DNA of 64,000 nt from Phormidesmis sp. (GCA_965248535.1 CBDFJR010000005.1:779546-843545), one strand, 5' to 3'. Shown: positions 10,025 to 19,356, counted from the first letter of the stretch. Notes: generated from the sequence alone by a model not told the origin. Numbers and translations are program-made.

Positions 10025-10396
10025 ATTCTGAAGCTGCGCTCGACTTTATTCAGCGCCTATAATGAGTACATTAGCACTATAGATATCATACCATCCTGAG
10101 ATTACGGGTTGGGAAATCTCGATCAGGCTAGCACTAAAATGCCGACCTATAGCTTTTCTTTAGCTGTTTTTTAGGGATAGCATGATAATCACTCGTGGTT
10201 TTCACAATTTCGATTTTGCTGTAGTAAAACGGTATTTGACTCCCGTCTACGCTAATTATGTATGCGATCGCATCTCAGGAAAATCCTTAAAAAGAATTTG
10301 AGGCTAAAGAGACGGATTCTCTGATCGTCACCCCATAGAATTTTTAAGGCAAAGATTGCACACTAGAAGATGATAGACATTCTAGGATTTTGCATC

Positions 10397-12472
10397 ATGT
10401 CTAATTCTGATCAAGCGTTGCGCTACCCCGCCACCCACAAAATCGAGCAGACCGACGACTATCATGGAGTCTCGATCGCTGACCCCTATCGATGGTTAGA
10501 AGATCCTGACTCTGACGAGACAAAGGCTTGGGTCGAAGCGCAAAATCAAATCACATTCGGATATTTGCAGCAAATTCCGGTGCGCGAAGCGATTCAGAAA
10601 CGCTTAACGCAACTCTGGGATTATGAAAAATACAGCGTTCCGTTTAAAGAAGGAAATCGCTATTTCTATTTCAAAAATGATGGATTGCAGAATCAAAGTG
10701 TTCTCTATACGCTCAATGCTTTAGACGCTGAACCGAGAGTTTTACTCGATCCTAACAAACTCTCAGATGACGGCACTGTGGCACTCTCGGGGCTATCGAT
10801 TAGCGAAGATGGAGCCTGGATGGCCTATGGATTGTCTACGTCTGGATCGGATTGGCAAGAGTGGCGAGTGCGAGAGATCGCAACGGGAAATGACACAAGC
10901 GATCGCTTGCAGTGGATCAAATTTTCTGGCGCATCGTGGACGCATGATCACAAAGGGTTCTTCTATTCTCGCTATGACGAGCCGAATGAGAAAACCAAGC
11001 TAGAAGACGCGAATTATTTTCAGAAACTTTATTATCATCGGCTTGGCACTGATCAGGCTGACGATAGTTTAATCTACGATCGCCCCGATCAAAAAGAATG
11101 GGGTTTTCAAGGTGGCGTGAGCGAAGACGGACAATATCTCATCGTTTCGGTTTGGCTGGGCACCGATCCGCGTAATCTGGTTTTCTACAAGGATTTGTCC
11201 AATCCTGATGCGCCTGTGGTCGAGCTAATTAGCGACTTTGAGGCGAGTTTTAGCTTTGTGGATCATGAGAAAAACCTGTTCTGGTTTCAGACCGATTTGG
11301 ATGCGCCACGGGGCCGAGTGATCGCGATCGACGTGACAAAGCCCGATCGTCCACAGTGGCAAGAAGTCATTCCTCAATCGGCAGAAACGCTCGAAAGTGT
11401 TGGCTTGCTCAATCAGCAATTTGTCGTCTCCTATCTCAAAGATGCGCGCAGCGAGGTCAAGATTTTTGATTTGGCGGGTGGATTCATTCGAGAGATCGCC
11501 CTACCCGGAATTGGCTCGGCGGGCGGATTTGACGGTAAGCGAGACGACACCGAAACGTTTTACAGCTTTACGAGTTTTACGACTCCGCCGACGATTTATC
11601 GCTATAACTTAGCGACGAATGAGAGTACGCTGTTTCGTCAGCCGCAGGTAGACTTTAACCCCGATGATTATGAGACTCGCCAAGTCTTCTACAGCAGCAA
11701 AGACGGAACGCAAGTGCCGATGTTTATTACCCACAAAAAGGGACTGAACCTCGATGGCAACAATCCGACGGAGCTTTATGCCTATGGCGGCTTTGGGATT
11801 TCGCTAACGCCTAGTTTTTCAGTCGGTAATTTAGTTTGGATGGAGCTTGGCGGCGTGTTTGCTCTGCCCAATCTGCGGGGCGGTGGCGAATATGGCGAAG
11901 ACTGGCATCAAGCCGGGACGAAGCTCAAAAAGCAAAATGTGTTTGACGACTTTATCGCAGCCGGGGAATGGCTGATTGCAAACGGATATACGTCATCGTC
12001 GAAACTGGCGATCGCCGGAGGCAGCAATGGCGGTCTGCTCGTCGGCGCGTGCATGACCCAACGCCCCGATCTGTTTGCGGCTGCTCTTCCGGCTGTCGGC
12101 GTGTTGGATATGCTGCGGTTTCACAAGTTCACGATCGGGTGGGCGTGGATGCCTGAATATGGCTCTCCAGAAGACCCAGAAGAATTCAAAGCGCTCTATG
12201 CCTACTCGCCGTTGCATCGACTCAAATCTGGCACGGCCTATCCTGCAACGCTGATTACAACCGCCGACCACGACGATCGGGTAGTGCCTGCCCACAGTTT
12301 TAAGTTTGCAGCGGCCCTGCAAGTGGCTCATTCAGGCGATCGTCCGGTTCTGATTCGAATTGAGACAAAAGCGGGTCACGGGGCGGGCAAACCCACCGCT
12401 AAAGTGATCGAGGAGATTGTCGATAAGTGGGCATTTCTAGTGAAAACCCTGGATTTTTCACCCACTCTTTAA
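10397..12472 (+). CDS. Prolyl oligopeptidase (peptidase S9A)
   Basis: DPYRWLED N-terminus, beta-propeller region, GGSNGG nucleophile, DHDDRV and AGHGAG motifs; start placed at MSNSDQ (ORF track begins 10370). Confidence 0.95.
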   Translation: MSNSDQALRYPATHKIEQTDDYHGVSIADPYRWLEDPDSDETKAWVEAQNQITFGYLQQIPVREAIQKRLTQLWDYEKYSVPFKEGNRYFYFKNDGLQNQSVLYTLNALDAEPRVLLDPNKLSDDGTVALSGLSISEDGAWMAYGLSTSGSDWQEWRVREIATGNDTSDRLQWIKFSGASWTHDHKGFFYSRYDEPNEKTKLEDANYFQKLYYHRLGTDQADDSLIYDRPDQKEWGFQGGVSEDGQYLIVSVWLGTDPRNLVFYKDLSNPDAPVVELISDFEASFSFVDHEKNLFWFQTDLDAPRGRVIAIDVTKPDRPQWQEVIPQSAETLESVGLLNQQFVVSYLKDARSEVKIFDLAGGFIREIALPGIGSAGGFDGKRDDTETFYSFTSFTTPPTIYRYNLATNESTLFRQPQVDFNPDDYETRQVFYSSKDGTQVPMFITHKKGLNLDGNNPTELYAYGGFGISLTPSFSVGNLVWMELGGVFALPNLRGGGEYGEDWHQAGTKLKKQNVFDDFIAAGEWLIANGYTSSSKLAIAGGSNGGLLVGACMTQRPDLFAAALPAVGVLDMLRFHKFTIGWAWMPEYGSPEDPEEFKALYAYSPLHRLKSGTAYPATLITTADHDDRVVPAHSFKFAAALQVAHSGDRPVLIRIETKAGHGAGKPTAKVIEEIVDKWAFLVKTLDFSPTL

Positions 12473-12657
12473 GTCAGACTCGCCTTCAGCATTGCTCTAT
12501 ACAGTTTTTACTTTCTGTATCGGTAAAGATGTATCGTGTCCTAGAGTCAAATCACCATAAACTTAGCTTCCGTGAGGAGGCTATTTTTTTCGCATAAAAG
12601 CCCCTAAACATAACGTCAGTCCGACGAGTTTCTCCGCTGCGTTCTCAGCAGCTTCTG

Positions 12658-12742
12658 CCCTCTAAATTCTCCCTGAATGGAAGACCTTAAGCCAAGACTA
12701 AATTTCTAGTTCAAAGTTCCCGAATTGGGGACTTTAGGGAGC
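12658..12742. repeat. Degenerate cyanobacterial palindromic intergenic element
   Basis: CCCTCTAAATTCTCCC...AAAGTTCCCGAATTGGGGACTTTAGGGAG resembles the CCCCCTAAATCCCCC...GGGGGATTTAGGGGG type repeat recalled from cyanobacterial genomes; arms imperfect. Confidence 0.35.
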
Positions 12743-12796
12743 TTCCCGGATTCACGATCGCATCCAACTACTTCTGTCAAACGAGGTTTATGTTAA

Positions 12797-12884
12797 GCAT
12801 AACGTTGCCCATCACCCGCCGCAGATCAACTTTGTAGTATACCGATCAACTCTCGGCGGTCGGTGTGCAGGGGCGTTGTTATGC
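12797..12884 (-). mobile_element. Integron attC site B (88 bp)
   Basis: Top (minus) strand GCATAACAACGCCCCTGCACACCGACCGCCG...GCGGCGGGTGATGGGCAACGTTATGC: complementary R''/R' boxes (GCATAAC/GTTATGC), imperfect L arms with extrahelical bases, 67 bp downstream of a minus-strand gene. Confidence 0.8.
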
Positions 12885-12951
12885 AGCGATAAATAACCAT
12901 GATGTTTCTCCATTTCATAAAACCTGGAAGAGATTCATAACCATCGGCGCA

Positions 12952-13284
12952 TTATGATAAAGCAAGCAGCGATAAGTTCTCATCTTCATAAAATAATTTG
13001 ATCGCGTCAAAATTCTGACGCAGCAAATTTTCAACCTGTGATGTCGAACAATTTCCAAGACGAAGCCAAATAACTTTCGGTGGATTTCCAGATACTAAGC
13101 TCAGGTCGTGCATATCCGCATCTTTCGAGACAATCATCAAATTCTTGTCTTTTGCATAATCCCAAACGATTGGATCGATTGTTGCCTTCATGCCCACGTC
13201 TCGAACGTGAAGCGAATTTGGGAAAAGATCACTTAAACGATTTGGCAACTTGGGCGACAAGTTTTCATCAAAAAGCAATTTCAT
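12952..13284 (-). CDS. DUF5615-family PIN-like toxin (VapC-type)
   Basis: LLFDENLS, IVSKDADM, PPKVIWLRLGN motifs; 4-bp overlap with the upstream DUF433 gene. Confidence 0.88.
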   Translation of the reverse strand: MKLLFDENLSPKLPNRLSDLFPNSLHVRDVGMKATIDPIVWDYAKDKNLMIVSKDADMHDLSLVSGNPPKVIWLRLGNCSTSQVENLLRQNFDAIKLFYEDENLSLLALS

Positions 13285-13511
13285 GCGGATAGTGGAGCAC
13301 TCATAAACCGACGCTCACGGTCGGCAGCATAAGCAATACAGGCTTTCAAATCTTCTCGCGTTAGATCAGGAAAATCGTCGAGAATTTCTGCTTCGGTCAT
13401 CTCGGAAGCTAGGTACTCAAGCACTTCATAAACCGTAATTCGCAAGCCACGTACACAAGGCTTACCACCGCGCTTATCGGGTTCGATCGTGATGTAATTT
13501 CGGTAGTTCAT
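13281..13511 (-). CDS. DUF433-family antitoxin
   Basis: ITIEPDKRGGKPCVRGLRITV...EILDDFPDLTREDLKACIAYAA is the DUF433 signature. Confidence 0.92.
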   Translation of the reverse strand: MNYRNYITIEPDKRGGKPCVRGLRITVYEVLEYLASEMTEAEILDDFPDLTREDLKACIAYAADRERRFMSAPLSA

Positions 13512-13570
13512 ATTAAAAGCATCTGAATGTTAATCAAATTGTAGCTTTGCAGTGGCGACTGATTCGCCCT

Positions 13571-13956
13571 TCACTTTAGATGATTTAGTTTCCACTCTAC
13601 CCACTCTGTATAAGTTTTAACCTTTGCGGGCGCATCCAAAACCTCAAAGTGCGACTTCGGATCAGTCAGCAAGTCCAAAACCAATTCCTCATACTCCTCT
13701 CGTGTAATCTCAAAAGGTTTCCACGAGCAACCTCCACTCATCCCAGCATCATATTGAGCTTTTCCGTCTGGAAAAGCCCATTAGGGAAAAACTCATTGGG
13801 CACACCCTGCTTTAACAAGTAACTTAATACATGAAAAGGTGGAATAAATTTATTTAACACGTAGGGCATCGCAAGTAGCAAATCCTTCAGCGTCCCTCTC
13901 GTCCAAATCCCGCCCGCGCAATGCATCGCATAAAGTTTAAAACGCAACTCTCTCAC
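13571..13956 (-). pseudogene. Frameshifted ~128-aa hypothetical cassette gene
   Basis: Frame 1 MRELRFKLYAMHCAGG...PNG (GTG 13956, GAGG upstream). A second frame AFPDGKAQYDAGMSGGCSWKPFEITREEYEELVLDLLTDPK...NHLK* is open to 13571. Span 386 bp = 3n-1. Confidence 0.6.
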
Positions 13957-14012
13957 CGAGCGATCGCCTCACCATTTACCTTCAAAAAACTTCCCAAACT
14001 ACAATCGAAGCG

Positions 14013-14798
14013 GCATAACGACTAAGATAAGCGGCGGCAGATAACCTTTGCATCCCCACAAAGATCTCGCGCCCGTCCGCTTCATCGACTTGTGTACGCC
14101 CAGCATGGGTGTGAACTAATGGGGTGAAAGTCCCCTGTCGGAGAACCAACGTCCAAATGATCCCAAAAGATCCGAGTGACGACAACGACTAGCTTAAGGT
14201 AAGGGCGTTTCCGCGAGGAAGGGTCTGAAGGAAGCCAGCGGCAAATCTGCGAGCTGACGGACAGAAACGTCATAGAAGGCTGAGATTCCTGTGGCAAGTG
14301 AGCACAACATCATGAAGCCTTTTGGTTCAGGGAACACAGTAAATGACGCAGTTGTGCAGAGACAGTTCACGTTCTTATCTGGGGAGATCTGCTCAAAGGG
14401 CGGTCTGAGGGTCTACGGGAGTCTGATTGAGGTCTAGCGGGAAACGGCTAGGGAGCCACGGAACCCTAAGGACATTCAGGCAGCGTGAGTCATGGCAACA
14501 GGACTCATGATTGAGCAGAAGTCAGCAGAGGTCATAGTAGCCAAACACTCACCGTAATGGGTGAGACAGGGTGAAGGGCTGAACCTTAGAAAGCAGGGAG
14601 GAGTTGCAAAGCTCGACTGGGCGATGAACCCGAACGGGGGAGCTATTTTGTCGGCGCTTAACTGCACAACCAGCCCTGGATATTCAGTTCTATTGAACTG
14701 GCTTGTCTAAAACTTTTCTGGGGACGCGCCCCGTGCGGAGCCGCACGCGGGGTGCCGTGGGGACTGGGGGAGAAAATCCCCTGGTTACCCGATTAGCC
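14013..14798 (-). mobile_element. Integron attC site A (86 bp once the intron is removed), interrupted by a group II intron
   Basis: Joining 14013-14093 to 14794-14798 gives top strand GGCTA^ACAAGTCGATGAAGCGGAC...GCCGCCGCTTATCTTAGTCGTTATGC with paired GAT(G)AAGCGG/CCGCTTATC L boxes. Confidence 0.85.
14094..14793 (+). ncRNA. Group IIC (attC-targeting) intron, ORF-less / internally deleted, 700 nt
   Basis: 5' end GTACGCCCAGCATGG...GGGGTGAAAGTCCCC; class C landmarks TCTGAAGGAAGC, AGTAAATGA, TTATCTGGGGAGATCT, AGAAGTCAGCAGAGGTCATAGTA; EBS1 ACAA (14304-14307) complementary to exon TTGT; DV GCGCCCCGTGCGGAGCCGCACGCGGGGTGC (14726-14755, CGC triad); DVI ending TACCCGAT; only ~130 nt of domain IV, no RT ORF. 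Confidence 0.93.
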
Positions 14799-14821
14799 TG
14801 CGTTTGCACTCACGCCGAGAA

Positions 14822-15187
14822 CTATAACTCATCAATCGTTACCAACCCACCTTCTGTGAACTGGATTACAAGCTCATGCTCGTCTAGCAAAGCAGTTCCA
14901 ATTAGAGGTCGCCGTCCTGTAGCAAACACACGAGCTTCTCGCTCCTCTCCGTTCCAAAGAATGATCGCTTTGTGCACTGGCAATATAACTCGGCTGTTAT
15001 CTGCCAAATTCGCACGCATATCATGTTTGAAAGGAAGATTCAGTAAAGCGACTGCTTCTGGCGGGAGACAAAGCTCATCTGTAAATCCTGTGTCTACTAC
15101 AAACTCAACTGGGAAGTCAGCGCGATTGGGAATCCGAAACGGGATGGTAATAATGGCGTGTCCGTCAGTAACAATACCCGAAATCAC
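14822..15187 (-). CDS. Clan AA (retropepsin-like) aspartic protease, AF_0612-like
   Basis: VVDTGF catalytic motif and C-terminal RRPLIGTALL; 121 aa; GTG start overlaps the upstream TGA by 4 bp. Confidence 0.85.
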   Translation of the reverse strand: MISGIVTDGHAIITIPFRIPNRADFPVEFVVDTGFTDELCLPPEAVALLNLPFKHDMRANLADNSRVILPVHKAIILWNGEEREARVFATGRRPLIGTALLDEHELVIQFTEGGLVTIDEL

Positions 15188-15459
15188 TTAACCACACGCT
15201 CCATGACACCACCACTAAAAGCCGCACCAACGTTGTACCCGATTTTGATCCCGAAGAGTCGGGCATTGGGGTGTTTCTCGCTCAAGTAGTCAGCGGCGCG
15301 TAAGCTATTTTCATCAACCTTGTAATCACCTGTCTCAATGTCAATGATGACGATCTTCCCGATGTTTTCTTCCACTTCCACCTCTTGGCGAATCCTGTCT
15401 TCGTATAGTTGCTCTGCACGTTGAGCAACTTCTTCGCGACTTAAAAGGATGGCTTGCAT
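15184..15459 (-). CDS. Small acidic protein translationally coupled to the aspartic protease (91 aa)
   Basis: MQAILLSREEVAQRAEQLYEDRIRQEVEVEENIGKIVIIDIETGDYKVDE...RLFGIKIG; start reassigned to ATG 15459 because the longer ORF overlaps the next gene. Confidence 0.75.
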   Translation of the reverse strand: MQAILLSREEVAQRAEQLYEDRIRQEVEVEENIGKIVIIDIETGDYKVDENSLRAADYLSEKHPNARLFGIKIGYNVGAAFSGGVMERVVK

Positions 15460-15538
15460 ATTCTGGCTCCCGATCGCTGTGTGGCTGTTGAAGAACCCCT
15501 TCATTATATCTTGTAAACGAAGCCTACAATGCCGACCA

Positions 15539-16075
15539 TTATTGCTTGATCCGAGCATACCAGCCGTAGGTTGTTCTCTGAGCCTTAGCACCTGTCCCTG
15601 AAAATCCTTCAAAAGAACCAGCCAAAGTGTATACCTTACCTGAACCCTCTCCATTTGAGAACATGTAGCCTGTATGAAATTGGAGAGTAGACGGATCTTT
15701 AGAATCAATGATTCTTATGAACGTGATCTTCTGGGCATCTTCATCCCAAAAACCATTGATCGGATTACCCATGACCGATCCTTGCACATTCCCGTTCACA
15801 TCAATAGCCGAAATTTTTAGCGTCCCTTCATATCCATTCCCATTAAATTGCCAGTCTCCAATTAGCAGGGATACTGAAGCATTGCTGGAATTGCTGGAAT
15901 TGCTAGAAGTTATAGGTAGCTGAGTGGATGGTGTAGGCGAAGCAGACTTATTGGAAGCAGAAAGTTTATCCCAGTTCGCAAACAGAGCTACAGCCACTGT
16001 GCCAATTAAACCAACCACAGCCAAAATAATCTGAGTGCGAGAATCTAACCCTTTGTTTTCATTATTATCTGTCAT
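15539..16075 (-). CDS. Hypothetical membrane-anchored protein (one TM, Ser/Asn linker, beta-rich domain)
   Basis: TM IILAVVGLIGTVAVALFA, SSNSSNSSN linker encoded by 9-bp tandem repeats, beta-strand-rich C-terminus with Trp/Gly turns. Confidence 0.7.
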   Translation of the reverse strand: MTDNNENKGLDSRTQIILAVVGLIGTVAVALFANWDKLSASNKSASPTPSTQLPITSSNSSNSSNASVSLLIGDWQFNGNGYEGTLKISAIDVNGNVQGSVMGNPINGFWDEDAQKITFIRIIDSKDPSTLQFHTGYMFSNGEGSGKVYTLAGSFEGFSGTGAKAQRTTYGWYARIKQ

Positions 16076-16159
16076 AGTGGTATACCACTGAAACAAACTG
16101 ATAGCGTCTTGTTACAAGTTGCACTACGATCGCTTGGCTCTGACCTCTGAACATTCCCA

Positions 16160-18019
16160 TCAAGGACAGGGAGTAGCTTTTGGAGGCGAATAAAGCGGCA
16201 CCCAGTTATCATTCGTAGCTACTACTGCGTTATATCGGCGTGTGTATAATCCGCCATCCTTGATTACAACAAGACGTGGTCTAAACCCCGTAGCACCAGA
16301 CCGAGTCATAATTTCAATTTGTGTGCTTCCTTTTAGCTCAGGGTCTGAATCTAATCTATTCCATGCTCCCCATGTCGAACCTGGTATCGCACTCACTTTC
16401 TGGCGTTGATAAATGGAAGTTACACTGTTTGAGTCCTTAGCCAAAAGATAAACATCCATTTGTCCGTTAGGATTAATTCCGGCTGCAATATCAAGCAGGG
16501 TCAATGTGGGTAGCCCTTCACTGAAAGATACCCAACCAGACCATTGATTGGAACTTGGACTCGAAATCTCCCAACTTGTTTTCACGTCGTTACCTGCTAT
16601 TAGAAAAATTTGCTGAAAACCACCAGTACTTGATGCAGCGATCGCACGAGAACCAGAGAATGTTCCAAGAAGTTTCTCTTGTTCCCAATTTGCATTCCAC
16701 GTATTCAGCTTTCGACGTGTGCGAATTTGTCCATCTGTATGAACAGTATAGAGCTGCATTGCTGTTGAGCCTGCGGACTGCGCTTCAATGTCAACTACGC
16801 TTCTCGACATCGCACTATCTGGAAACCACGTCTGCCAATCAGCCCAAACCCCAGGACTAGTCTCAAATTTATTCCAAATCTGAGAAGCCTTTGAGGTTTG
16901 ATTTTCTGCTTGAGCAAATATCCAACGTCTTCCATCAAGGGTTGTTGCAGAGGTAAGACGACCAAATAATAGGAGAGATGCGAACAATTTGGAATCACGG
17001 AAGTCGCGCCATTGATCAGCGGAGCGATAACCATCTGTACTATCAAGACTTGTCCAAGCTACTGAATTGAAAAAGACATCACCACTGGTTACCCCAAGCA
17101 ATTGTCCATTCCCATGTGTAGCTGTGAATCCTTTGGCGCGAACTGGTGCAAAAGCCCATGCATTTGTTCCGATTTCTCGGTTTGCGTTTTCTTCAGTCCA
17201 TGTGGAGGCATTACCGCTACCACCGCCACCCACCGTGGACATAATAGCTGGATTTGAAAAAGCATTGACGATTGTTGGTCCTCCAGATGCACCGCCTTCA
17301 TATGAGCAATCACTAAGAACTACGCCAAGTCCCTCTTGACGCTGCCCACTAGCTGTTGAGCAAACTGCATCCTTTCTCAACTTACAAGTGTTGTAATGTC
17401 CTAATCCGTTACTTCCAAGAAAATCACCCGAATATCCAAAAACAGTTACGTCAATTCCTTCAGAAGGAATGGGATTAGGGGTTGAATTAGAAGCAATCGT
17501 AGGCCAGTTTAGAAAGGTCGCTGGAAAATCAGGAACACCTGAGTTACTCGGCGGATTCCCCCGACTGTATGTACTTGGATCAAGTTCGACGATAGTCCAA
17601 TCCGCTCCAGGAACATAGGTACCACCGTCATTAATCTTGTTATCGTGACCAGTGCCAAAGACTATACGCTTTCCTCGGATTGAGGGACGGTAAGAATAGT
17701 TGGTGGCATTGGGGGTACCTACGAAAGCCGGTCGAAAAATGATATCGCCAGGGTTGACATTACGAGCAGCAAAACAATGCCTTGCTGTGATGATGTGGTT
17801 GGGTGCAAGATGAGTTGCGGTACAGTGTCCTCCACCTGGAAGGTCAAGTAGTCCAATTGCCCAAAGGTTTCTATTGGTTCTGAAGAATGCGTCGTCCATG
17901 CCAACCCGTGGATCACTTGAGCCATACCATGTCGCAGAAGCAGTGCTAGAGACAAAGAGCGAACTGAGGATGAAGGCAAAGAGCAATACCTTAATTCGGT
18001 CATACTTCTTGGGCGACAT
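16160..18019 (-). CDS. Secreted trypsin-like (S1) serine protease fused to a C-terminal Trp-rich beta-propeller lectin-like domain
   Basis: Signal peptide (LLFAFILSSLFVSSTASA); HCTATHLAPNHIITARHC (His), ADWTIVEL (Asp), GGASGGP (Ser); C-terminal ~45-50 aa repeats each ending in W-x-x-W (GVWADW, NANWEQ, NQWSGW, STWGAW). Confidence 0.82.
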   Translation of the reverse strand: MSPKKYDRIKVLLFAFILSSLFVSSTASATWYGSSDPRVGMDDAFFRTNRNLWAIGLLDLPGGGHCTATHLAPNHIITARHCFAARNVNPGDIIFRPAFVGTPNATNYSYRPSIRGKRIVFGTGHDNKINDGGTYVPGADWTIVELDPSTYSRGNPPSNSGVPDFPATFLNWPTIASNSTPNPIPSEGIDVTVFGYSGDFLGSNGLGHYNTCKLRKDAVCSTASGQRQEGLGVVLSDCSYEGGASGGPTIVNAFSNPAIMSTVGGGGSGNASTWTEENANREIGTNAWAFAPVRAKGFTATHGNGQLLGVTSGDVFFNSVAWTSLDSTDGYRSADQWRDFRDSKLFASLLLFGRLTSATTLDGRRWIFAQAENQTSKASQIWNKFETSPGVWADWQTWFPDSAMSRSVVDIEAQSAGSTAMQLYTVHTDGQIRTRRKLNTWNANWEQEKLLGTFSGSRAIAASSTGGFQQIFLIAGNDVKTSWEISSPSSNQWSGWVSFSEGLPTLTLLDIAAGINPNGQMDVYLLAKDSNSVTSIYQRQKVSAIPGSTWGAWNRLDSDPELKGSTQIEIMTRSGATGFRPRLVVIKDGGLYTRRYNAVVATNDNWVPLYSPPKATPCP

Positions 18020-18090
18020 AGTTCCCTATTTCCTTGCTGAACACCAACAGACAGTCTTTCATCTACCGCCCCAACCCAGATGACGAAGCA

Positions 18091-18179
18091 GGCTAACGAT
18101 TGAGTTGAACCGCACCAAATCAATCAAGCAACACCAACTTTAGTTGGTAGTGCGGTTAACCTTACGACTATTTGTAGCG
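18091..18179 (-). mobile_element. attC-like site C with an intact 3' half and a degenerate R'' half
   Basis: Minus strand ends GCGGTTCAACTCAATCGTTAGCC (compare classical ...GCTTAACTCAAGCGTTAG); arms GTTGAACCGCAC (18104-18115)/GTGCGGTTAAC (18150-18160); no clean TAAC at the R'' end. Confidence 0.5.
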
Positions 18180-18600
18180 TGTCGGTTCCAACGAAATGTT
18201 CTACGGAACTGGGTGGATGTAGTGTTCCCAATGGGTAACATTTATATCCAGTTCTCGTGGAACTATTGATTATACGGAAAATTTCCGTATATCTCCCCGA
18301 TTTAGGCAGATACCCGGAAACTTTCTGCATATCTCCCCTCACTTTTCATTAGGTATTCTGATTCTATGAGATCATATTCATTATTTCGTTGAGGAATTAT
18401 AAACCTTTAGGGACGATCGCGCCCCTCTCTTTCCCCAAAACCCGATCGCTCCTCCCAAAAAATTCAGCATTCCAAAAAACAAAAAACTCTAGTACAATAC
18501 ACCGCAGTGATGGAGTTGTGCCCCGAAGTCTGATGGACAAGATCAGAACTCCGAGGACTTCCATCCCTAAGTTAGTGCACTGATAACTCAGGAGGCGTTC

Positions 18601-18720
18601 ATGATTGTACACCGTCGGCTTTGCTATGGGATCTTGAAAGGCTGGAATCAAGATCCTGCATACAGATTTCACCCCAACACAATGTCTGAGAGATCCGTGT
18701 TTTTGTCCTCTTTGAACTAA
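18601..18720 (+). CDS. Possible 39-aa leader/small ORF, absent from the ORF track
   Basis: AGGAGG at 18590-18595, ATG 18601, MIVHRRLCYGILKGWNQDPAYRFHPNTMSERSVFLSSLN*; its stop lies in the loop of a 12-bp hairpin. Confidence 0.4.
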   Translation: MIVHRRLCYGILKGWNQDPAYRFHPNTMSERSVFLSSLN

Positions 18721-18737
18721 TCGAGAGGACAAAAACT

Positions 18738-19109
18738 ATGGCAGTTAGGACGATCGTTCCTAGCTCGATTTCGTTTACGGTTGAGTTAGGTTGCTCAATC
18801 GAAAAGCGTTATCGAGTCAGTGTCACTTTGGATTTACAAGAGCGTTATCTCTTCATGCCGTCTGGCATTCTCGTGAATGTTAGCGACAGCATTGAAGACT
18901 TCACCTCGCAACTGAGTGAGATTGCTTCTAATCAACTGGCATTTCTGAAGTGGGATGGCACGAGTGATTTGACGACAGAGTATCAAGTTGTTCGAGTGTT
19001 GCCCGGTTATCAAGTTGGACGTTCTCTCGTGAAGTTCAACATTGTTCTGGGTGAGGGTTCACTGATTCAAGTAGAGGAGTTGCACAACGAAACCAACATT
19101 CAACTCTAG
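18738..19109 (+). CDS. Hypothetical protein (123 aa)
   Basis: ATG with GAGGA RBS; no recognisable motif. Confidence 0.55.
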   Translation: MAVRTIVPSSISFTVELGCSIEKRYRVSVTLDLQERYLFMPSGILVNVSDSIEDFTSQLSEIASNQLAFLKWDGTSDLTTEYQVVRVLPGYQVGRSLVKFNIVLGEGSLIQVEELHNETNIQL

Positions 19110-19356
19110 AACAGTTGGGGTTAGAGATCCGTCGATGATCCCTTTGGGAGCCTGCAATGTGATCTGTTGGGTTATAGCGCTTGCCCCCAAAGCGGATTCA
19201 TCCTCATTACTGCTTTGCTCTTTGTTTAAAGTTGGAAGGTTGCCGTTCAGCTTGGTCATTCATCGGCCCAAGCGTGGCAAAGACATATATTTAGAAGCTT
19301 GGAAAACAGACGGTGAATCTATCCTCGAACCGAGTACACTACAAACTGTTTGATGG

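Follow-up and report, generated by a model that had tools for sequence, protein, structure and literature searches.

The region is very probably the remnant of a sedentary integron of a filamentous cyanobacterium of the Leptolyngbyales (Phormidesmis-related), consisting of a platform, a platform-linked site (E3) and two cassettes, from which intI was deleted, into which an intron was later inserted, and whose array is now frozen. Integrons are bacterial gene-capture systems, and their attC sites are recombined by the integron integrase (IntI) as folded single-stranded DNA. In the window, i.e. the whole stretch of 64 kb that was analyzed, the array would run leftward on the minus strand. The platform would comprise a spacer and 40-nt repeats (18180-18340), next to which intI, expected on the plus strand, is probably deleted, with ~100 nt remaining as a scar. 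E3 would follow on the left of the platform, then cassette A ending in E2, and cassette B ending in E1, with the recombinogenic bottom strands on the window plus strand. The cassettes would have been captured by IntI-mediated recombination at the AA|C of the R' boxes. After this capture an ORF-less group IIC-attC intron would have retrohomed into the R'' box of E2, the reverse transcriptase presumably being provided in trans. At present the array is most likely frozen, as there is no integrase in cis and the R-box halves of E2 lie 700 nt apart; the loss of the distal box and bulged T in E3 would be a further ground. The cassette genes would then persist as ordinary accessory genes. The features are summarized in Table 1.

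Table 1. Features of the array and its surroundings in the window
Feature	Position	Strand	Remarks
Cassette B	12803-14018	-	Two translationally coupled small gene pairs; ORF calls and Pfam
E1, terminal attC site	12797-12884	+ (bottom strand on +)	GCATAAC...GTTATGC, 88 nt
DUF433 and DUF5615/PIN-like pair, cassette B	13511-12952	-	Pfam: DUF5615 2.6e-35, DUF433 5.8e-25
orf72/orf56 pair, cassette B	13956-13571	-	ORFs
Cassette A	14019-18096	-	Four genes; 3.4 kb without intron, unusually large
E2, attC site up to TTGT	14013-14093	+	R' = GCATAAC 14013-14019; R1 match
Group II intron, ORF-less, IIC-attC kind, 700 nt	14094-14793	+	Rfam matches
E2, 3' remainder of R'', TAGCC (last 5 nt)	14794-14798	+	Beyond intron
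Clan AA aspartic protease, 121 aa, cassette A	15187-14822	-	TIGR03698 84 bits, cut-off 57
92-aa protein, cassette A	about 15462-15184	-	Coupled with aspartic protease gene
Membrane-anchored protein, 185 aa, cassette A	16096-15539	-	ORF
Secreted trypsin-like protein, 619 aa, cassette A	18019-16160	-	Trypsin_2, weak, 9.6e-5
E3, attC-like, platform-linked	18091-18179	+	GGCTAAC...TTGT-AGCG, 89 nt; R1 match
Conserved spacer between E3 and repeats, 84 nt	18180-18263	+	Ends GTGGAAC; homologous to L114
Platform repeats, n=2	18268-18340	+	Direct repeat D1, spacing 40 nt
Deletion scar, ~100 nt	18345-18444	.	Comparison with L114
Conserved element, directly downstream of intI in L114	18445-19110	+	82-85% identity to relatives

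Properties of the attC-like sites

Three elements in the same orientation, E1, E2 and E3, are located close to where the first-pass annotation had placed elements of 86, 88 and ~89 bp, and they are the only matches of a covariance model (R1) in 64 kb, searched on both strands with filters off. All three matches are on the plus strand: E2 (14013-14093) with 83.9 bits and E 1.3e-21, E1 (12797-12879) with 45.8 bits and E 1.1e-10, and E3 (18091-18175) with 19.4 bits and E 0.0044; the next match in the window has E = 3. The earlier description of two sites as clean and one as half-degenerate was also borne out. In E1 the R' box occupies 12797-12803, with the crossover between A12802 and C12803, and the R'' box 12878-12884; the two are complementary over the full 7 bp and follow the pattern RYYYAAC ... 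GTTRRRY. E2 is 86 nt long without the insert at 14094-14793, and its boxes (GCATAAC/GT^TAGCC) follow the pattern after removal of the intron: joining 14093 to 14794 restores TTGTTAGCC, which is complementary to GGCATAAC. Intron-free forms of E2 (...ACTTGT|TAGCCTGC...) are present in contigs of runs X1 and X2, with loose ends at 14093. In E3 the R' box (18091-18097) is intact, the R'' box is degenerate and departs from the distal pattern, and the usual bulged T is missing.

Long but imperfect hairpins are obtained for E1 and E2; each has an R box of 7 bp and an internal loop. On the plus strand the 3' arm is 2-5 nt longer than the other and carries bulged T and C/G, a mark of the bottom strand, in register with attC_aadA1; for the E1 hairpin the DNA fold has z = -2.8. 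E3, a weak site, folds differently from E1 and E2, and two compensatory changes hint at an inner hairpin. A naive scan for R boxes and folding energy did not single out E1, E2 or E3, and their confirmation rests on the model-based test.

A CALIN is defined as a cluster of attC sites lacking an integron integrase (Cury et al. 2016, PMC4889954). In the window at least two attC sites are clustered on the same strand, no more than 4 kb apart (E1-E2, 1.1 kb; E2-E3, 3.3 kb counted from 14798 or 4.0 kb with the intron), and tblastn returned no intI in 64 kb below E 0.8. Each of the eight intervening ORFs is encoded on the minus strand, as had been observed before.

Platform and probable loss of intI

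The end of the spacer stands at the place of the attI junction (xCTAAC) of other cyanobacterial integrons. The spacer contains long invariant stretches across seven sequences and is 93-96% identical to positions 1-103 of L114, which lie upstream of an intact intI. L114 (MAG JBBRPT01) is the closest relative found, with a prolyl oligopeptidase 93% identical to that of the window. The two platform repeats comprise TTTCCGTATA at 18282, TAGGCAGA at 18303 and TTTCTGCATA at 18322, and a palindrome, TATACGGAAAATTTCCGTATA, is located at 18271-18291. The repeat motif occurs in most cyanobacterial IntI loci with a period of 40-41 nt, at about -200, -160, -120 and -80 from the intI start. The platform, a putative attI side, shares homology with the DNA upstream of intI in L114 and bears the 40-nt repeats.

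Positions 18167-18312 of the window match 1-147 of L114, and 18445-19110 match 1300-1957. At the place of the scar L114 has ~1.1 kb, comprising two further repeats and the whole intI (311-1270, intact, 320 aa), which has no counterpart in the window; no functional intI is found at 18345-18444, its expected position in a complete integron. Since the window flanks match both sides of the intact L114 intI and intI itself is absent, the array would therefore have been orphaned by deletion in place. The first-pass annotation had left open whether the solo array is served by a distant IntI or orphaned; the sequence comparison favors the latter, the platform being kept and intI cut out relative to L114, and a distant IntI is less favored.

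The conserved element to the right of the scar contains a 123-aa ORF (18738-19109), and neither element nor ORF gave a match in Pfam or NCBIfam searches. It lies at the same relative position, with 82-85% identity, in L114, L194, L196 and L197. In runs X1 and X2 it is covered roughly 50-80× as deeply as unique parts of the window, and because it is a high-copy repeat, its adjacency in several genomes is a weaker proof of synteny than that of a unique sequence. Two Phormidesmis genomes, L196 and L197, have likewise lost intI at this position, the latter with a larger loss of repeats; L194 keeps an N-terminal IntI remnant of 24 aa.

E3 is found at 83-92% identity in L194-L198, with the platform conserved alongside. 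It is conserved together with the platform in six genomes and is a lineage-conserved, platform-linked site, not an ordinary cassette attC; the original reading was corrected on this point. Comparison of the locus in relatives places the start of homology between genomes at the R' box of E3 (xxxxAA|C), and to its left the window differs from the Phormidesmis MAG L196. Counterparts of E1 and E2 are found in arrays next to intI in other cyanobacteria: attCs of intI-upstream arrays in Leptolyngbya PCC 7375 (L132) and in L184 share 88% identity with E1, and an attC of the L126 array shares 85% with E2. The stems of E2 are nearly identical to those of an attC in L087. Capture by IntI is suggested because the likeness between genomes stops exactly at the E3 R' box and because other integrons contain homologs of the cassettes and attCs; this points indirectly to attC recombination at the window sites.

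Group II intron in E2

The intron was recognized by matches to RF02001 (127.8 bits), RF01998 (63.7 bits) and RF00029 (43.5 bits), all above the gathering thresholds. The RF00029 match ends exactly at the intron end (14793), and a group II ribozyme with domains I-VI is present. The intron is inserted at TTGT/T in the R'' box of the E2 bottom strand, in opposite orientation to the cassette genes, with the junctions ACTTGT|GTACGCCC ... CCCGAT|TAGCC and the same geometry as introns in L082. IIC-attC introns characteristically enter attC bottom strands at TTGT/T and are oriented against the cassettes (PMC7923331, PMC3001079). The 5' end, GTACGCCCAGCATGGG, and the target geometry are the same as in introns of the class 1 sites attC_aadA1 and attC_fosE, and the RNA is 68% identical over 500 nt (domains I-III) to ORF-bearing IIC-attC introns of class 1 integrons.

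Compared with S.ma.I2 and its relatives (PMC3001079, PMC7923331), the window intron shares the insertion site in R'' and a nearly identical 5' end, but it lacks an intron-encoded protein (IEP) and has ~140 nt in place of the ~1.4-kb ORF. The monophyletic IIC-attC clade is defined by the IEP; the window intron is likened to it by RNA and insertion site. Copies of 698-703 nt with 86-91% identity are found in other Leptolyngbyales.

State of the array

It is unlikely that the array represents a live CALIN, whose cassettes are still excised and reshuffled in trans by an IntI encoded elsewhere in the genome. E1 is intact, as are the R' boxes of all three sites, but the bottom-strand hairpin of E2 cannot form as such because it is split by 700 nt, and with E3 lacking a proper R'' box and the bulged T, neither cassette therefore has two sound flanking sites. 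Half of all CALINs lie in replicons encoding IntI (Cury et al., PMC4889954), and runs X1 and X2, which hold the window DNA, contain contigs 83-90% identical to cyanobacterial intI; however, the depths of these contigs do not fit that of the unique window sequence, the samples being mixed and the organism not assignable. The difference from L196 to the left of E3 would be in keeping with reshuffling, yet a clean R'-to-R' excision joint was not found in runs X1 and X2, and the sole E1-E3 joint (12823 to 18093) misses the crossover point and is supported by 24 nt. A frozen array is accordingly the preferred reading.

Covariance model and its validation

R1 was made in this analysis from 19 sites of other genomes, with none from the window, as a substitute for the attC model of IntegronFinder. 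Its training alignment shows compensatory changes in 11 of the 12 stem pairs. R1 may favor one attC subfamily because it was trained on intron target sites. On plasmid pB of Kovacikia minuta it finds five sites upstream of an intact integron integrase (468 bits on TIGR02249, cut-off 265), and two sites of a class 1 integron, attC_aadA1 and attC_fosE, are recognized with 36.7 and 23.8 bits, respectively, their bulged bases lying in register. The occurrence of this attC family upstream of intI elsewhere and the recognition of class 1 attCs support the initial reading as a CALIN-like array, and E1-E3 appear, on sequence grounds, to belong to an attC family arrayed upstream of genuine integron integrases in other cyanobacteria. 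The weak score (19 bits) and atypical form of E3 count against the integron reading.

Group IIC introns generally insert after terminator hairpins (PMC4424553), and the elements might accordingly be a hairpin-repeat family (terminator-like, REP or MITE-like) of mere intron landing pads and no integron sites, a notion in keeping with the training of R1 on such landing sites and with E3-like elements lacking a clear array in L195, L197 and L198. It is nevertheless highly improbable, as R1 sites are tied to intI (in 80 IntI loci, 55 of 56 sites are on the intI strand and 54 upstream of intI), canonical class 1 attCs are recognized, R'/R'' boxes and asymmetric attC bulges are present, and a complete integron uses the same attC family.

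The first-pass annotation had seen no tyrosine recombinase on either side, and none was found in the window by tblastn with two IntI queries, IntI1 (best E 0.86) and the Kovacikia IntI (best E 3.2). A complete integron whose integrase was missed, as too divergent for two queries or as lying beyond the window after one of the rearrangements that can split chromosomal integrons (PMC4889954), is scarcely credible, since the geometry puts intI on the plus strand just right of the repeats, where ~100 nt of non-coding DNA are followed by the element found downstream of intI in L114, and the ORFs flanking the array carry no recombinase domain. The remnant of an integron that lost its intI in place remains the preferred reading.

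Comparison with known systems

Integrons, CALINs and attC-targeting introns are all known already, Cyanobacteria included. The earlier view that attC sites and CALINs are known mainly from Proteobacteria, with the find as a taxonomic surprise, was overstated, as Cyanobacteria are already on record as carrying both integrons and attC sites (PMC4889954, PMC2426708, PMC8352920). Nor is the assumed chromosomal location supported, because related cyanobacteria have such arrays on megaplasmids.

The array shares with the complete integrons of Leptolyngbyales (Kovacikia minuta CCNUW1 pB, NZ_CP083584; L114) the R1 attC family, the orientation rule (bottom strands on the intI strand, cassettes opposite) and the 40-nt TTTCCGYATA repeats upstream of the intI position. 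In contrast to them, it lacks intI and two of the four repeats, and the window clade has an extra conserved 170 nt (E3 and spacer) between the repeats and the variable part. Relative to attC_aadA1, the classical 60-bp 59-base element, the bottom-strand order is the same, with R' xCTAACG, the L' stem and a bulged T, followed likewise by 6 bp, a bulged base, a stem and TTGT|TAG. The cyanobacterial sites differ in length (86-88 nt) and have a loop of ~35 nt; E2-type sites carry C, and not the G of attC_aadA1, as second bulged base, and in the E1 type three bulges of one base each are spaced by 3 bp.

Like the CALINs of the 2016 survey, the array carries cassettes of unknown or toxin-antitoxin-like function and no resistance genes (PMC4889954). 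It also resembles the 95% of survey CALINs without a recognizable intI trace (PMC4889954) in having no intI pseudogene; unlike them, it has a recognizable platform, and its origin can be traced from the retained attI-side platform and the DNA downstream of intI. Most arrays without intI in that survey showed no visible link to an integrase (PMC4889954), whereas in the present case an intact relative matches the platform and the two flanks of the lost intI, which makes the array a clear, traceable example of CALIN origin; the loss of intI from the same platform in two Phormidesmis genomes adds to this. The knowledge of integron mechanism is unchanged by the finding. What is gained is an attC model that works for Leptolyngbyales, together with a series of integrons, some complete and some decayed, in which the ORF-less intron family, the 40-nt repeats and the structure of attI could be studied.

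An attI-side architecture for Leptolyngbyales, which was not found described in the literature searched, is put forward tentatively, with doubts outweighing confidence. Four TTTCCGYATA units spaced by 40 nt would lie upstream of intI; in the Phormidesmis clade, E3, at 84 nt from the repeats, would be a fixed proximal crossover replacing a simple attI core; and an ORF-less 700-nt IIC-attC derivative, presumably mobilized in trans, would have spread through the attC sites of the order.

Gene cassettes

The crossover points in the R' boxes of E2 and E1 delimit cassette B, and the genes of each of its two pairs overlap by 4 nt (13738-13741 and 13281-13284). R1 found no attC inside cassette A. Four ORFs each in cassettes A and B, compared with the usual one or two, count against the integron reading. 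Several cassette genes form toxin-antitoxin-like pairs, which may favor retention. An applied importance of the cassette genes (secreted protease-like, aspartic protease pair, PIN-like/DUF433 pairs) is not evident. The pair of 92-aa and 121-aa genes recurs beside attCs or upstream of intI in L130 (85.6% nucleotide identity), L134 and L099. The G+C content of the array is 43-47%, compared with 50-55% in the flanks.

Layout of the locus

The features of the array stretch are listed in the table. Eight ORFs lie between the terminator of the prolyl oligopeptidase gene and the 469-aa ORF, all on the minus strand, and the G+C content is 43-47% within the array versus 50-55% outside it. When single-stranded, E1 and E2 fold into long imperfect hairpins: a terminal stem of 7 bp is followed by an internal loop and then by an inner stem with single-base bulges on its 3' arm; the fold of E3 is unlike these. 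The number of ORFs per cassette exceeds the usual number, and no internal site was found by R1, a covariance model built from sites of other genomes; cassettes A and B may be fused cassettes. Several of the cassette genes form small coupled pairs of toxin-antitoxin type, a frequent content of such arrays (PMC7923331). The closest relatives at the oligopeptidase locus (L001-L003) have only the gene and its terminator in common with the window, with both flanks different. Their likeness ends at about 12593-12602, and some 200 nt of unassigned sequence (12600-12796) separate the terminator from E1.

Features of the array stretch
Feature	Position	Strand	Remarks
Prolyl oligopeptidase gene	10370-12472	+	terminator is left border of the array stretch
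E1	12797-12884	+	starts GCATAAC, ends GTTATGC
Cassette B	14018 to 12803		four ORFs
E2	14013-14093 and 14794-14798	+	starts GCATAAC, ends GT^TAGCC (^, intron)
Cassette A	18096 to 14019		four ORFs
E3	18091-18179	+	starts GGCTAAC, ends TTGT-AGCG
469-aa ORF	starts 19357		right border of the array stretch

Identification of the attC sites

When pairs of complementary R boxes were scanned for and ordered by folding energy, E1-E3 did not stand out from chance hairpins. Because this simple scan was unselective, R1 was built as an independent test from 19 of the intron-preceding elements of the baited loci described below, none of them from the window. In the 19-element alignment, compensatory changes are present at 11 of 12 inner-stem pairs. 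The window was searched with R1 over the full 64 kb, on both strands and with filters off. Only E2 (83.9 bits, E 1.3e-21), E1 (45.8 bits, E 1.1e-10) and E3 (19.4 bits, E 0.0044) matched, all on the plus strand; the next match had E = 3. The three attC-like elements in the same orientation that the first-pass annotation had claimed are thereby confirmed.

Four lines of sequence comparison say that the E1-E3 family are attC sites. First, an annotated integron integrase on Kovacikia minuta plasmid pB, which scores 468 bits on TIGR02249 (cut-off 265), has five plus-strand R1 sites immediately upstream of its gene. Second, an R1 search of 80 loci fetched with the Kovacikia integrase as query gave 56 sites, 55 of them on the intI strand and 54 upstream of intI. 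These counts reflect integron geometry, in which the cassettes point away from intI and the strand of intI carries the bottom strands of the sites. Third, R1 recognizes attC_aadA1 (36.7 bits) and attC_fosE (23.8 bits) of a class 1 integron, whose two bulged positions are in register with the model. Fourth, parts of the window are found again in other arrays: attCs of Leptolyngbya PCC 7375 and of one further locus share 88% identity with E1, and an attC in L126 shares 85% with E2. The clan AA aspartic protease (TIGR03698) and the 92-aa protein coupled to it have counterparts upstream of intI in L130 and L134 and, in L099, beside an attC that bears an intron. Cyanobacterial integrons and attC sites have already been published, including a phylum-specific attC model (PMC4889954, PMC2426708, PMC8352920).

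A solitary R1 match (39 bits, E 4e-8) lies at 2924-3002 of L003, a Phormidesmis MAG, some 7 kb upstream of that MAG's prolyl oligopeptidase gene and away from any array seen. In a Stenomitos MAG (L096, 341-922) the gene of a tyrosine recombinase lies some 120 nt from an attC that bears an intron; being FimB/FimE-like and only 193 aa long, the protein was rejected as an IntI and may be a cassette-borne invertase.

Loss of the integrase

From the geometry of the array, intI should lie directly right of E3 on the plus strand. The earlier statement that no tyrosine-recombinase ORF lies on either side was borne out: tblastn of the window with Kovacikia IntI and IntI1 as queries gave nothing better than E 0.86, and the ORFs neighbouring the expected position hold no recombinase domain. 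The integron locus (L114) of the closest relative found (MAG JBBRPT01), whose prolyl oligopeptidase is 93% identical to that of the window, has an intact intI. Window 18167-18312 aligns with L114 1-147 (93-96% across the first 100 nt) and window 18445-19110 with L114 1300-1957 (82%). Between these flanks L114 contains two further repeats and the intI gene (311-1270, 320 aa), and the window just about 100 unrelated nt. Among related genomes, a Phormidesmis MAG (L196) matches window 18086-19109 continuously, likewise without intI; P. priestleyi ULC007 (L197) has no intI and one repeat left; and in L194 IntI is reduced to 24 N-terminal codons. The matched flanks and the losses in relatives argue that the array was orphaned by deletion of intI in place. 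As the loss recurs in related genomes, it would not be recent. The reading as a CALIN (an attC cluster without intI) was right, with orphaning the better supported of the two origins first proposed; the element is an integron-derived CALIN, an already known kind.

A second type of decay is seen in Nodosilinea sp. LEGE 07088, where four attCs are followed by an intI of about 90 N-terminal codons with an in-frame stop (L084, 7049-7330); other contigs of this strain (L117, L122) carry intact IntI genes. In Myxacorys chilensis, a C-terminal IntI half with 74% identity to Kovacikia IntI sits at the edge of the locus (L195, 2-385), 5 kb from a relic of E3 plus platform, the integrase-proximal part to its right, which suggests a second integron or a rearranged one.

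Present state of the array

Cassettes A and B would have been inserted by IntI at the AA/C positions. The R'' box of E2 now lies 700 nt from the rest of its hairpin, and E3 has neither a proper R'' nor the bulged T. Neither cassette is therefore flanked by two sound sites, an integrase is absent in cis, and the orphaned array is probably immobile. There may be an integrase elsewhere in the same genome: two public runs with window DNA also contain intI-like contigs, but the depths of these contigs do not match the window and the samples are mixed.

Contigs of the four best public runs were compared with the window and L114, in mixed samples where repeats pile up; they gave no firm evidence of an IntI elsewhere in this genome or of cassette excision. 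In one contig of run X2 (depth 27), position 12823 within E1 is followed directly by 18093 at the beginning of E3, so that 5269 nt are missing. This joint is off the R' crossover points and has 24 nt of support on one side; instead of excision, the contig may reflect a different locus whose attC arms are similar.

Nature of E3

E3 and the next 84 nt are conserved with the platform in six genomes. Left of E3 these genomes have nothing in common, the likeness starting at the R' box, at xxxxAA/C, which is the bottom-strand cut position of integron integrases. This speaks against E3 as the attC of a cassette captured recently; it is a fixed, platform-linked site where the variable part starts. Either it could be a fossil attC, left by an ancestral first cassette that had no ORF, or it could belong to this clade's attI. 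Two compensatory changes among seven sequences in its inner hairpin hint weakly at a maintained structure. In L195, L197 and L198, R1 found no convincing array to the left of the E3-like element, so these loci are uninformative on cassette turnover.

Platform repeats and the adjoining element

Right of E3 lie two 24-nt repeats spaced 40 nt apart (18268-18340). Their core, TTTCCGYATA, recurs with a period of 40-41 nt in most of the cyanobacterial IntI loci examined, at about -200, -160, -120 and -80 relative to the start codon of intI and usually in four units (for example L084 6850-7040, L112 14760-14960, and upstream of intI in L113-L166), and TAGGCAGA is frequent between the units. The units could be accessory binding sites of IntI or operators of a regulator.

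The element at 18445-19110 lies directly right of the deletion scar, and its L114 counterpart directly downstream of intI. It contains a 123-aa ORF that matches no family, preceded by a possible ORF of 39 aa. Further copies occur in L114 (2545-2676), L194, L196 and L197. In runs X1 and X2 it is covered about 50-80 times as deeply as unique window sequence, which marks it as a high-copy repeat.

Group II intron in E2

The 700-nt insert that splits E2 is a plus-strand group II intron, with three Rfam families above threshold and the domain V-VI match ending exactly at 14793. It matches 399 plasmid records, including a copy 87% identical on a Kovacikia minuta megaplasmid and relatives 67-77% identical in enterobacterial and Pseudomonas plasmids. 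On one plasmid with such a relative, the matches are the textbook group IIC-attC introns of a class 1 integron; they lie between blaVIM-2, fosE, aadA1 and qacEdelta1, with the cassettes on the other strand. The junctions are alike: ...GAATTGT/GTACGCCCAGCATGGG...CCCGAT/TAGAC at attC_aadA1 and ...GACTTGT/GTACGCCCAGCATGGG...CCCGAT/TAGCC in the window. By the published rule, such introns insert into the attC bottom strand at TTGT/T in R'', opposite to cassette transcription, and cases in CALINs are known (PMC7923331, PMC3001079). With a 23-nt stretch of the intron as bait, 29 loci were recovered, mostly from Leptolyngbyales; in almost all of them an element of about 81 nt, xCTAACG...TTGT, precedes the intron.

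A limited literature search found no description of three features, each of which might be new: the arrangement of 40-nt repeats upstream of intI in Cyanobacteria, the conserved proximal site that resembles attC, and the family of ORF-less attC introns.

Near-full-length members of this ORF-less family (698-703 nt, 86-91% identity) occur in L081, L087, L092, L095, L097, L099 and L111, across several Leptolyngbyales genera and nearly always within an attC. The upstream element is atypical in L092 and L111, and L099 carries the label of a Rhizobium MAG, perhaps through a binning error. On Kovacikia minuta plasmid pA (L081, 12001-12190) a 3' fragment of the intron is followed by two copies of TAGCCTGCGCTGGTAAAGC... 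with the 3' half of an attC between them, which looks like a tandem or aborted insertion or recombination of intron copies.
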